A stretch of 64,000 bases of DNA, taken from Haliotis cracherodii. Lineage: Eukaryota. The stretch's first letter is position 1. Every line of letters starts with the position of its first letter. Of this stretch, positions 18,240 to 45,905 are shown piece after piece. A program made the position numbers and the translations under genes. The stretch lies in NCBI RefSeq assembly GCF_022045235.1, contig NW_027266286.1, positions 64,666,001 to 64,730,000 of the forward strand, read 5' to 3'. Under the pieces are notes generated by a model, which was not told where the DNA came from, did not search any database, and saw only the letters and a program-made list of their open reading frames with translations.

Positions 18240-18273
18240 ATTATATGCTAAGTTGACAGTTCAGAGTGAACGC
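18240..18273 (-). promoter_or_regulatory. L1 core promoter: GCGTTCACTC + 18 bp + TATAAT
   Basis: Same motif and spacing as in the paralogues. Confidence 0.65.
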
Positions 18274-19829
18274 GTATGCTTTGGTGACGCGTGATGACCG
18301 CTTTGACACGCTGTGACGTCACAGCGCGTGACACAGCAACACTTGCTGAGTGATAAGTATTCACATTGTTTTCCCCTGATGGTTAATTGATCACTTGACG
18401 ATGAAGTGATTTTAAGCTTAGAACTTTCCAGGCTTGGAAGGTGCAGTCAGCCGCATCATAGCCAGCTAACAGTATGTTTTCAGAAAGCCGTTTGTGAAAG
18501 AATTATCTCATGATTGAAGTATTGACCTGATCTATCCCCAATGGCATCGATAAAACTCAATTGAATGAAAAGTATAGTATCACACACCCTGTCCTTACTG
18601 CAGTTAAGTCCCATTCATTATGTATATACTACTCAAAAGAAGTTAAAGAACAACCTATTCTTGTATATTACTGCAGTAAAATTGTCATGGCATCACAGAT
18701 TAAAAATTGAAAATGAAATACATAAAAAATACCTCTTCATCGTTATCTTTATATGGCATTTTTATAGGCCATCGGCAACTGATGTTACATGCACTTACGG
18801 TCTTTGAATAACACATTAACACTATTTTTTCTCACTTGCATTGCATGCTACAAGCATTGTCAGATGTCTAAATTTCAACATACATCAGCATAATATATTT
18901 CTGTAAATAGTATTTAGTGATTAGTATTTCTTGTGGAAATCTGCATAAACTTCACAAAGAAGCAAAATGTGATACTAATTTTATCCATGGTTACAAACTT
19001 TACAAAACTTTGCAAAATCTTTCTTATCTTTTCTTATCTTGGTTTTGTTATTATATTATATACATAGTATGTATATATGTGTAGTATTGATTGATTACGA
19101 TGAGCATAATGATAGGTGGTTAATCTAATAGTTCCTCATATAACTCAGATTGCTTTATGCTTTTTTACAATTTAGATATTGAAATTATATAATTTCCCTG
19201 ACAGTATCACCTTACTGTTAATGTCTGAAAAACACTTAAGTGGCATGAACAAATGATAAAATAATATACAAAAAAACTTTCTGTTAAGTATTTTGGGTAT
19301 CCAGCCCAAATTACATGTATATTTATGATAAACATTGATATGTAAGTCTAATTATGTATATGATTACAGTGCAATTAGACCATTTATTCGTTCAGTGGCA
19401 CTATTTGCATTAGAAACATACCGTAAAGCAATACAGTGTACCTAGACAAGGAGAAATAAACTACAACAATGGCATCGGCACAGAATCACGATTTTCTCAA
19501 CAGATCCGTGATATGCCAAGAAAAAAGACGCCAACTCAATAAAACAGCTTTATTACAAATAAATAGAGACAAATTATTTTATTGTTTCCTCACACACTAA
19601 TCTTCATAAAATATTGTAGAAATTCATTGGTAATAAAATGTTTTAGTTGAACACTTTGTGTTATCACATCAATCCCCTTCTTGCAAGGGGGCCTCTGTCA
19701 AGGCCTTGATTGTCAATGATTGTTGATGTTTTCATCTTACTACGAAATGTGATCAGCTTGATTAGCCATCATCGGATTACGACACACGCTTATCACTGTG
19801 GTGTCAAAGAAAATGCCATCATGACCCTC

Positions 19830-19865
19830 TCGTTCACTCTGACGCGCAAACCTCACCATATTAAA
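19830..19865 (+). promoter_or_regulatory. Promoter of truncated copy: TCGTTCACTC + 19 bp + TATTAAA
   Basis: Motif shared with the paralogues. Confidence 0.55.
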
Positions 19866-19952
19866 CGAGCAAGTGGAGACGATGTTTGTATTTTTCTTCT
19901 CTTGACTATTTCCACACAAGTCTTCCTCTAGTTCCTTCTACGCAGCTTCAGA

Positions 19953-20075
19953 ATGTCGGACATGTCATATGACCTCCTCTCCTCGGACTTGGAAGAGTCC
20001 GCAGACTTCATCGCTCTCAGTTTCAACATCGCTGACCCCTTGTGGAGGGAACGAGTGTATCGCGAGGACGAGTGA
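19953..20075 (+). pseudogene. 5'-only LIM-homeobox pseudogene (first 30 codons, then WRERVYREDE-stop)
   Basis: Encodes MSDMSYDLLSSDLEESADFIALSFNIADPL, then jumps at GTG (20042-20044) into spacer sequence seen at 23660. Confidence 0.9.
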
Positions 20076-20961
20076 TTAGTGTTGTGACAAGCTCATCACA
20101 ATGATTAGCACTTACCTGGTTGCTGACATTGTTTCATCAAACGTTACCGCGCTTTCATCACAGTGAGCAGAGCAATGACTATGTTTACACAGGTGATTAC
20201 AGGTCTCGTCCGACGTTTTAATAAAGGAAAAACGTTAGACATGCATAAGGAACGAACGTTGAAGTTTTCGAATGGATGAACTATATTGAAAAAAAGAGCG
20301 TCCACTTCACAAATATTATATGACATATTCACAGATAGATTGAATAATTAGCTCCATTGATTTGATTATTTCTGTTTAAATGGGATTTATTAAAGTCAGA
20401 TTGAAATGGTAATTATTTCGTCGTTTCTGTCCCAATTACATGTAGTTTTTTACAGGATGCATAGTTCTTGTTTTTAAATAAACGATTGGATCTATTTGTC
20501 TCATTCTGGAACATAAGGTGAATGGCTTTGCTATTACAATTATCATAGACAGAAAATGAAATCACTTTGACAACATGATTGTATTTCGTCTACAGCGTTC
20601 CGCGGGTTATCAACATATGTTCATCATTAATCTGTCAGAAAGCATTTAACAGTTATACTTACACAGTAGTCAGCTGAGGTTTAACTAGTGATTGCTGAAG
20701 TAACAGAAGATTAAACTCATCTTATGAAAATACCAAATGATCATTATATGTTTCTTTCAAATAAGGACATGATATTGTCTGTCAATTGATTGCTCTTTAT
20801 TGGACTTGTCTGTTCAGTGAGCTGTGATCACATCGTCTTAGTGACCAGTCAGCTCTAACAAAACAACATGTTCATCACGTGATTGTTACGGCGACACCTG
20901 CTAAATACGGCGCCATCATCATGAGTACCTAGACACGCGATTACGCGTCATCATGACACTC

Positions 20962-21024
20962 TCGTTCACTCAGAGTTGCCAAGCCAACATATAAATCACA
21001 AGCTGTTTTGTGCTGTCGACATTC
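20962..21024 (+). promoter_or_regulatory. L2 core promoter: TCGTTCACTC, TATAAA (20990-20995), Inr-like ACATT ~21021
   Basis: TATA-Inr spacing ~30 bp; same motif at 24584, 28208 and 31819 for L3-L5. Confidence 0.7.
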
Positions 21025-21094
21025 CATCTTTCATCATCTTCATCAAGTCACAACATCACAAGTCTTCCTCTAGCTCCTCCTGTCCACCTTCACA

Positions 21095-43430: not shown

Positions 43431-43505
43431 TTATTCCCTACATTATTCCCTACATTATTCCCTACATTATTCCCTACATTATTCCCTACATTATTCGCTA
43501 CATTA
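43431..43505. repeat. 12-bp minisatellite (TTATTCCCTACA) x6
   Basis: Read directly. Confidence 0.95.
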
Positions 43506-44200
43506 AATGATCGGGCTCAGTTTGGCTCGGTCCATGGTGATTTTTCAGTTCAGTTTTCAAAGTATCTCTTAAAAATGTTCATTATTTTGGACTCCTTCTA
43601 TTATCATATTTGAAAAGCCATGAGGTGCTTTGAGGTCAAACATCTTATGAATCGCTCCCAAATCTATTAATATAATATCAAAATATTCGGTTCGAAGCAG
43701 ATTGGCATATTTAACGCTCATTTAAGCACGTGCATTTTCAGTGTAAGCTGTTTTGTCTTTTTAAAACAATAACATCATCTCAGATACAGTCTGAATTGAA
43801 CACGAGTTTTGTTTATTTTCCTACTTTTTCCTGAGATAGAACATAGAGAAACAACTCAAAAAATGCACTCAGTTGTCCTTCAGGTGAGATAGTTCAACAG
43901 TTATACCTTCCTCATTGGTTCATAAGGGGCCGGTCGTTTGATATTCTGTAGGGGCATGTGTTTGAAAAAGAAAAACAATAGCCTTATGTTTACCACGCAT
44001 AAACCATGCTGGATGTTCTGACAAGTGTTTGGCACCTTGTGTCAGAGATACGTCTTGTATAGCTTGACGTGCGGATTAATAAATATTCTGTCTCAAACAA
44101 GTACTTGAAGCCACCTGGACTACTTAAGGTCGGACCGTTAGGCACATATGAGAATGTATTTGCTCATCTCATGTTGTGTTTTAATTGTAAACATGTAAAA

Positions 44201-44365
44201 GGGGCGGTCGGGGAGCCCAGTGGTTAAAGCGTTCGCTCGTCTCGCCGAAGACCGGTTTCGATTCCCGACATGGGTACAATGTGTGAAGCCCATTCCTGGT
44301 GTCCCCCGACGTGATATTGCTGGAATATTGCTTAAACCGGCGTAAAATCAAACTCAATCACTCAA
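44201..44365 (+). mobile_element. SINE family A
   Basis: Full-length match; degenerate TSD TAAA.AT.TAAAAG. Confidence 0.9.
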
Positions 44366-44867
44366 TAAAGATATAAAAGATGAAGCACATGCTTTGCTAC
44401 CATGGCCATTATATAGATGCATTATGGCCACCCATGTAAATGTATGCTTTAAAGCATGGGCAAGTTTTTATTCGTTAACTGCTTGTTTAATGTGTCCTTG
44501 ATATTATTACCCTGGCTTGACCTCTTATGTTCCTAGAATCTTCTTAAGTATTTTATGTAAATAGACATGTATCATATTGTATCATATATAGTCTTGCATA
44601 CACCGCCAAGTGACTGGTCTTAAATGTATGTATACTTTTAGTATGTACACTCTAAAAAAAAAATTGATTTTTTTGGTAACATTTGACACAAGAGCCATCA
44701 TATTATGTTGTTCGGTATATTTATGCATGATATAAACAAACACAGTAATATCATTTTGTTACACAGTCATCATTCGTTGTCACGGGAGTAAATATTTTTT
44801 TGTAACAATCGTTTTCTGGCCCTTCACGTTAATGTTGAGTGTGAGTTACATTGTGTGTTAGAATACA

Positions 44868-45450
44868 TGGTTTAAACATATTCATGTTCACAAAAATGTG
44901 AACATGGATTGGTAAACAAGCGTAACGCTTATGTTAATACCGCTCAATTACACAGAAGACATGATACAATAAATATACCAAAGAAGGTTAGATGTAACAA
45001 ATCAATTGTACATGCCAAGCTAGATGTGTGTATATATAATAAATATATTTGCAGTTTATATTAAACAATTCATTTAATTGAAAATCTGCATGTCTTTAAT
45101 ATGAAGTTTTGAATAGAATCTAATGTTTGGATTTGCTCTTTCTTACTCAAATACGAATTTCCGCGTAGCACTGTTTGTAAAGAATAACCATGTTGGTAAA
45201 AATACATTTTCATTTCGAGGAACATAGTAACTTGTACAAACAAAAAAGAAGTGTAAAGCATCTTCTGTATGGTATCCACATGAACAATTTTTGGTATCCA
45301 AAATATATCTATCATACTGATCTGCGTTAAGATCGCTGCAGCCAAGCCTGAGGCGACTGTGAATAATTTGACAAATCCATAATTTGAATCCAAGTGAAAT
45401 AGACAAGTTGAATCCACTAAATACATGATAAAGATTTTATGTATTTGTAC
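44868..45450 (-). mobile_element. 5'-truncated CR1-group LINE remnant (ORF2 C-terminus + 3'UTR)
   Basis: Frameshifted IIHSRLRLGCSDLNAD...CSCGYHTEDALHFFFVC..Y and LRGN..LS...IQNFILKTCRF; ends in AATATGTTTAAAC. Confidence 0.8.
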
Positions 45451-45562
45451 GTAATATTTAAGAGTGCGGCTAAAATAAACACTTCTGTTTGTCTTAGTGA
45501 ATGAATAGTAGGCATTAAGAAACAATTGACTTGGAGTACTGCACAAATTGATAATCTGTTGG

Positions 45563-45905
45563 ACCGTAACTGTAGATATGACTCGTCAATACATCTCAAG
45601 CCTTAATAAGCCAATGATTGAACTACTGATAGAGTCAATCAAACCTCCGCTATGTGGTTCGTGACGGCGCGTGTCAACATGGCTGACACTGCCGTCACGC
45701 CCGAAGTCGTTCACTCAGTATGATGCACCGTAACTGTAAATATGACGCGTAAATACACCTCAAGCCTCAATCAGTCAGTGATTGAATATCGATGGAATTA
45801 GTCAATCCGCAGCGAGTTTGTACGTGACGGCGCGTGTCACCATGGCTGACAGTGCCGTCACTCCCGAAGTCGTTCACTCAGTCTGGTATGCGTAGAAGTA
45901 TATAA
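45563..45905 (+). promoter_or_regulatory. L9 promoter: 164-bp tandem duplication, each copy with a palindrome and TCGTTCACTC; TATATAA at 45899
   Basis: Units start at 45563 and 45727; motifs at 45707 and 45870. Confidence 0.7.

Follow-up and report, generated by a model that had tools for sequence, protein, structure and literature searches.

A 64,000-nucleotide stretch of the Haliotis cracherodii genome (contig NW_027266286.1, forward strand, positions 64,666,001 to 64,730,000; hereafter the window, numbered from its first letter) contains a cluster of nine intronless open reading frames (ORFs), L1 to L9, of 220-223 amino acids, each encoding two LIM domains and a homeodomain, as well as a truncated 5' gene copy (psi). 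We examined the nine-base word CGTTCACTC, which stands upstream of TATA elements in this cluster and for which an original prediction had proposed binding of one activator at a strict distance from the TATA-binding protein (TBP). The ORFs are located at 17482..18144 (L1, 220 amino acids, minus strand), 21095..21757 (L2, plus), 24717..25379 (L3, plus), 28341..29003 (L4, plus), 31952..32614 (L5, plus), 36058..36720 (L6, minus), 38688..39350 (L7, plus), 42161..42823 (L8, minus), and 45988..46659 (L9, a divergent paralogue of 223 amino acids, plus). They are arranged as the head-to-head pairs L1/psi, L6/L7, and L8/L9 and as four tandem units of 3.6 kb (L2-L5) that are 92-97% identical to each other. 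The psi remnant comprises the first ~31 codons (19953..20044, plus) and is broken where the first tandem unit starts.

The genes are Awh/Lhx6/8-like LIM-homeobox genes with named homologues annotated as 'LIM/homeobox protein Awh-like' in Haliotis rubra, H. rufescens, and H. asinina, and this type of cluster is found across Haliotis. The RefSeq Awh-like genes of the genus (XP_046554330-337, XP_046380756-765, and XP_067674901-911) agree with the window genes in family and cluster type and are known by annotation name only; L9 and L6 have clear orthologues among these relatives. A literature search yielded no description of an abalone Awh-like cluster. The available part of one paper gives two oyster Awh genes and no cluster of such kind (PMC5322547), and that of another makes no mention of Awh or Lhx (PMC13544226). 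A metagenome scan gave no relative.

On another contig, the same genome carries a spliced Awh gene, and as introns are missing in the cluster genes, we infer that the cluster originated from a retrocopy of that gene. Synonymous divergence (dS) is 0.15-0.28 among L1, L2-L5, L6, L7, and L8 and 0.39-0.49 to L9, and the ratio of nonsynonymous to synonymous divergence (dN/dS) is 0.08-0.32; the cluster genes are under purifying selection. L9 forms one clade with its orthologues from H. rubra, H. rufescens, and H. asinina (support 99/99), and judged by this tree, the L9 lineage is older than the split of these three species. The LIM-coding part of L9 is 87-98% identical to the other copies, whereas its homeobox end (the last ~120 bp of the ORF) has just 59-67% DNA identity to them, and species-specific residues are common to the paralogues within a species. 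A similar LIM-coding part next to a diverged homeobox end, together with these shared residues, argues for gene conversion, and dS therefore understates the age of the L9 split. Within species, conversion hits the LIM-coding part, and L9 retains its own N-terminus and homeodomain (17482-46659).

CGTTCACTC has 10 exact matches in the window versus 0.42 expected, a number that was reached in 0 of 100 shuffles, and all 10 fall inside the LIM-homeobox cluster. The nine sites of the original prediction were all found where it had placed them, its coordinates taking in the preceding T or G. In eight genes, the word precedes a TATA element at a spacer of 18 (L1, L2-L5, L7, and L8) or 19 (L9), as predicted, but the pseudogene had been wrongly included, as psi has TATTAAA at a spacer of 19 and not TATA. 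As L2-L5 are near-identical tandem units, the nine sites amount to about six independent lineages, five with the complete arrangement and psi as the sixth.

L1 (minus strand) has the word at 18264..18272 and TATAATAA at 18238-18245 (spacer 18), with GTGTCA at 18304-18309 and TGACGTCA at 18314-18321 upstream. In psi (plus), GTGTCA at 19801 and the word at 19831..19839 are followed by TATTAAAC at 19859 (spacer 19). The promoters of L2 (20954..20997), L3 (24576..24619), L4 (28200..28243), and L5 (31811..31854), all on the plus strand, consist of TGACAC, the word (20963-20971, 24585-24593, 28209-28217, and 31820-31828, respectively), and TATAAATC (at 20990, 24612, 28236, and 31847), and that of L7 (38554..38597, plus) of TGACAC, the word at 38563-38571, and TATAATCT at 38590. 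L8 (42909..42992, minus) has TGACGTCA at 42985-42992, TGACAC at 42947-42952, the word at 42935-42943, and TATAAATA at 42916. The proximal module of L9 (45823-45879 within the promoter 45823..45906, plus) contains GTGTCA at 45834, CGTCA, and the word at 45871-45879, and the TATA element TATATAAC follows at 45899 (spacer 19). The tenth exact copy, missed by the original prediction, lies at 45708-45716 on the plus strand, at the end of an upstream duplicate of this module (45660..45716). It is part of a local duplication of 165 bp upstream of L9 and is located 182 bp from the L9 TATA; it has no TATA of its own at +18/19 because the duplication border falls just 3' of the motif.

CGTTCACTC is the 3' end of a module of ~57 bp that also holds GTGTCA/TGACAC and CGTCA words. 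GTGTCA or its complement TGACAC is present within 60 bp upstream of the motif in 8 of 8 segments (0.066 expected in each). In L1 and both L9 copies, the forward word stands at about -37, and in psi at -30; in L2-L5, L7, and L8, the reverse word stands at -9. The alternative position is decayed in each case, and this swap of position and strand between lineages looks like site turnover. CGTCA occurs in L1, L2-L5, L6, L8, and L9, and the full TGACGTCA in L1 and L8. We take GTGTCA/TGACAC to resemble SIX4/5 or TALE sites and CGTCA/TGACGTCA to resemble CREB/ATF sites. The accompanying words that had been described for most copies are distributed more narrowly, with the GTCA-N3-TGAC palindrome in L2-L5, L7, and L8 only, and CGCGTCA upstream of the motif in L1, L2-L5, and L8 only, besides the motif-less L6. 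Because at least two further recurring words accompany it in the module, the proposal of one activator for CGTTCACTC was too narrow.

To examine conservation of the word beyond common descent, we aligned the promoters of six lineages (L1, psi, L2, L7, L8, and L9) over 192 columns, leaving out L6 and the gene-less orphan modules described below, which are without the word. The promoter tree has a length of 2.9 substitutions per site. Apart from the 9-mer, no invariant run in the alignment exceeds 2 bp. At the observed column invariance, a 9-bp invariant run occurred in 0 of 200,000 draws for the six lineages; the probability of such a run is 0.0006 with the five closer lineages and 0.027 at an assumed tree length of only 0.9. 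The word is better conserved than its flanks among the paralogues, and L9 keeps it even though its homeobox end has diverged. In a direct comparison of the L9 duplicates, 3 of 57 sites differ within the module versus 24 of 102 outside it, upstream (Fisher p = 0.004). A DNA run from a related species (organism A, ~96% identical) has 1 listed difference in the 114 sites of the two L9 modules versus 22 in 374 outside (p = 0.023). The 9-mer is probably under constraint.

Two kinds of copies have lost or changed the word. The L6 promoter (36778..36835, minus) has the homologous upstream block and TATAAAG at 36785, and an 11-bp deletion near 36806/36807 removes the motif, with both sides of the gap aligning. 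The organism A run does not cover 36722-36820, a blank that proves nothing. Further upstream of L6, at 36860-37200, there are several TAATTA/TAATTG words, presumably of the homeodomain type, which are perhaps substitutes for the lost site, and L6 has an additional in-frame ATG three codons upstream. Searching with a 46-bp profile that has the motif at its 3' end, we found four gene-less orphan modules on the minus strand, one at the start of each tandem unit, in which one base of the motif is changed to give CGTTCCCTC. They are located at 20045..20090 (unit 1, motif 20045-20053), 23663..23708 (unit 2, motif 23663-23671), 27292..27337 (unit 3, motif 27292-27300), and 30952..30997 (unit 4, motif 30952-30960, abutting an N stretch). 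The orphan modules match L7/L8 at 25-29 of 37 upstream bases and end 2 bp past the motif, with no TATA and no gene, and seem to be what is left of a head-to-head partner that was lost; those of the later units have TGATAC in place of TGACAC. Every tandem unit also has an additional 3' gene fragment (the last 33 codons and the 3' flank) ~300 bp past its intact copy, with positions 22074-22172, 25690-25788, and 29314-29412 (plus).

A genome-wide scan for CGTTCACTC-N18/19-TATA gave 59 matches, 8 of them in the cluster, compared with 97 for a reversed-pattern control that was not CpG-matched. At 50 of 51 non-cluster exact matches (one duplicate locus left out), no recognizable intronless gene was found downstream, in a reading that would miss spliced genes, short first exons, other spacings, and variant words. 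These matches gave no sign of a genome-wide regulon. Composite patterns gave 16 matches with TGACAC (10 of 10 non-cluster matches read) and 41 with GTGTCA (33 of 37 read), and the non-cluster matches were mostly short interspersed elements (SINEs), other repeats, and microsatellites. The common transfer RNA-like SINE has CGTTCGCTC, which is one CpG change off, and accounts for 12 of 117 distinct sites, but the cluster flanks do not match it, and an origin of the word from this SINE was rejected. Two words of its head occur in swapped order in the upstream L9 module at 45690-45716, which is probably a coincidence. At an unrelated locus (L196:1490, C7:28776689, plus), GTTCACGC-N18-TATAAA lies in what looks like a promoter, with a short non-coding first exon possibly following it. 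In locus L043, the spliced Awh gene shows no motif (2 one-mismatch matches versus 2.07 expected), although the true start of this gene was not mapped. A literature search for the word found nothing related.

Taken together, we give a probability of about 0.6 to the reading that CGTTCACTC is the invariant 3' end of a promoter-proximal module that was copied with each gene, that it is a candidate activator site, and that its spacing to TATA was inherited. It would be an ordinary but real, probably functional proximal-promoter site that came with the amplified homeobox family. Three conservation tests and the decay in gene-less copies agree on a constrained site common to the cluster, as originally proposed, and binding to it is predicted from these patterns. 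In the suggested mechanism, a sequence-specific activator would bind CGTTCACTC and act together with factors on the neighboring GTGTCA/TGACAC and CGTCA words to switch on transcription at the TATA just downstream. The retrocopy of the spliced Awh gene would have multiplied in head-to-head pairs to raise dosage. Through the module, every copy would be expressed in the same brief burst, plausibly in the oocyte or early embryo.

Several points weigh against this reading. The aligned sequences were cut and anchored relative to the motif, which favors the invariant-run result, and the border of the 57-bp module was drawn after the data had been seen. The five-lineage alignment has a further invariant run of 8 bp in the 5' untranslated region (UTR) near the ATG; it is probably due to conversion, and with the evident conversion of the LIM-coding part, it indicates that conversion can produce invariant runs. 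For organism A, 26 of 28 differences were listed, and if the other two lay in the module, p would be 0.23; at its L7, read depth dips over 38510-38584 and 14 of the 32 differences were not listed, which leaves the motif unreadable there. L6 has no motif, yet its ORF is intact and it has an H. rufescens orthologue (P0021), and no TGACAC was found within 400 bp of L6. Conversely, psi retains an intact motif though its gene is truncated, and the change in the orphan motif counts as one event, not four.

The persistence of L6 without the word and its retention in psi would also fit a neutral duplication remnant whose identity is owed to chance and to short tracts of gene conversion, a reading we consider unlikely, though the best placed of the alternatives. 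In its favor, the copies are all paralogues of one another, the coding region has undergone strong conversion, and the non-cluster matches yielded no unrelated gene with the word (50 of 51). However, within 20 bp on either side of the word, the L9 flanks match the others at only 15-44% ungapped, which would be too little to seed a 9-bp conversion, and the conservation tests and the decay in the orphan copies likewise speak against neutrality.

It seems somewhat less likely still that the element is fixed in position and requires its factor at 18-19 bp from TBP, in the manner of a proximal sequence element (PSE) or a lineage-specific core promoter element. The spacer is 18 or 19 in all six lineages, while the TATA-to-ATG lengths (89, 93, 94, 98, 101, and 105) are different in each, and GCGTGTCA or a decayed form of it starts 39 bp before the motif in L1, L7, L8, and L9. 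When the TATA-to-ATG variation is scaled to 18 bp over the six related lineages, the probability of a spacer range of no more than 1 bp under neutral indels is 0.03 for a mean indel size of 2 bp, but 0.18, 0.36, and 0.62 for mean sizes of 3, 4, and 6 bp. Outside the cluster, only 4 of 48 genome matches of CGTTCACTC-TATAAA have spacers of 18-19, out of 23 spacings. The relaxed word GTTCACKC has 56 genome matches at 18-19, including 5 from the cluster and 17 from one long repeat, which leaves 34 versus 29 at control spacers of 13-14; 20 of 51 non-cluster matches of this pattern were read, and 6 of the 17 repeat copies were fetched. Neither the exact nor the relaxed word therefore has a genome-wide preference for 18-19 bp, and the upstream L9 copy is equally conserved at 182 bp from the TATA. 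The word is also absent from 28 of 28 U1, U2, and U6 loci. The originally proposed strict distance to TBP is not supported, since shared descent fits the spacing, there is no genome-wide peak, and the distant copy is equally conserved. Most likely, the 18-19 bp go back to the first copy and were passed on from it, and any need for the word to lie close to the TATA would be loose at most.

Least probable of these alternatives is a main unit of CGTCA/TGACGTCA and TGACAC, presumably bound by CREB/ATF-like and SIX4/5- or TALE-like factors in signal-induced genes of the immediate-early type, with CGTTCACTC as an accessory: the distribution of CGTCA and TGACGTCA described above, an organism A difference at 38546 that restores CGTCA at L7, and the retention of CGTCA and TATA in L6, which loses the 9-mer, would fit it, but across lineages these words change in sequence and position, unlike the 9-mer, and psi has no CGTCA in the 60 bp before its motif.

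A distant intronless LIM-homeobox paralogue ~115 kb away (259 amino acids, 39% identical to L1; locus L040:1201-1977, minus, C23:64551088-64551714) has CCAAT-like words and no TATA, and it has TTCACTCAGTC in common with the L9 site (14 of 16 bases), 90 bp upstream of the ATG of the paralogue; the 10-mer common to both has 0 matches in 270 kb of control loci. Since these 14 of 16 bases are shared, the site may predate the cluster. This belongs to a bolder scenario, which we regard as improbable. Here, an undescribed gastropod activator of the oocyte or early embryo would have to be placed two helical turns away from TBP and would switch on an array of Awh/Lhx8-like retrogenes that was amplified for dosage, and L6 would have escaped naturally to the control of a different regulator. 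At 4017-4706 (minus), 13 kb from the cluster, there is another intronless gene, a bHLH gene (Pfam HLH) that we take to be Olig-like.

Through this short word, the regulator of a homeobox family amplified across abalones becomes accessible to testing, and the locus has built-in controls in the site-less L6, the gene-less copies with a mutated site, and the duplicate far from the TATA. Proximal sites that are conserved and duplicated along with tandem genes are nothing unusual, and the general lesson would be small unless the factor were an unknown oocyte or zygotic activator. With regard to expression, a putative RNA contig of organism B covers 45969-46319 of L9; its start at 45969 fits a short 5' UTR but cannot show the start site. 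Putative RNA contigs do not cover the L6 and L7 5' UTRs or 45502-45960, and these blanks prove nothing. In the available part of an H. laevigata preprint (10.1101/2025.08.18.670794), 'LIM/homeobox protein Awh-like' is among the top 50 genes changing in the maturing ovary, and this gene may be from the present cluster, the distant paralogue, or the spliced gene.

As for the factor itself, the cluster sites share the TTCAC.C core with the Pax6 paired-domain consensus P6CON, ANNTTCACGCWTSANTKMNY (PMC2612750), as well as the W after it in all copies and the expected TG in L1, L2-L5, L7, and L8. They differ by a G-to-T exchange in the core, which is TTCACTC in all copies whereas P6CON requires TTCACGC. 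P6CON was rejected, with 6-7 mismatches as in unrelated genomic CGTTCACTC sites (median 6 of 65), and the 3' flank fits WTSANTKMNY no better than background (6-7 versus median 6 mismatches). The doubt about a paired-domain identity that came with the original prediction was hence justified. Ordinary paired-domain genes are present in the genome, which says nothing on binding. In view of the TTCAC.C core and a neighboring L9 word that interchanges GTCACGC and GTCACTC between the duplicates, our best single guess for the factor, at a low probability, is a paired-type helix-turn-helix protein reading TTCAC(G/T)C, although some factor not listed here is more probable than any of those named.

The PSE of small nuclear RNA (snRNA) genes, which is bound by SNAPc, has a fixed spacing to TATA, and the cluster word resembles it in position, ~50-57 bp before the predicted start and ~18 bp before the TATA. 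The differences are that the cluster genes are protein-coding and that the word is missing from the snRNA loci of the genome; this candidate was rejected, with GTTCAC(T/G)C in 0 of 28 U1, U2, and U6 loci. Several U2 snRNA loci (L073-L076) have a TATA-like box ~30 bp upstream, while the tandem U2 array on C5, the U1 loci, and the U6 copy L061 are without one.

In Drosophila, Zelda (TAGteam) sites stand beside the TATA promoters of genes active before the mid-blastula transition, according to the available part of a published study (PMC3743134). The cluster is similar in having activator-like words within ~60 bp upstream of TATA and short, compact genes, for which rapid high-output transcription is proposed. 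We would guess at expression of the cluster in the oocyte or early embryo. The sequence is a different one, however, and whereas Zelda motifs mark many unrelated genes, the present word with its TATA was found in one paralogous cluster only.

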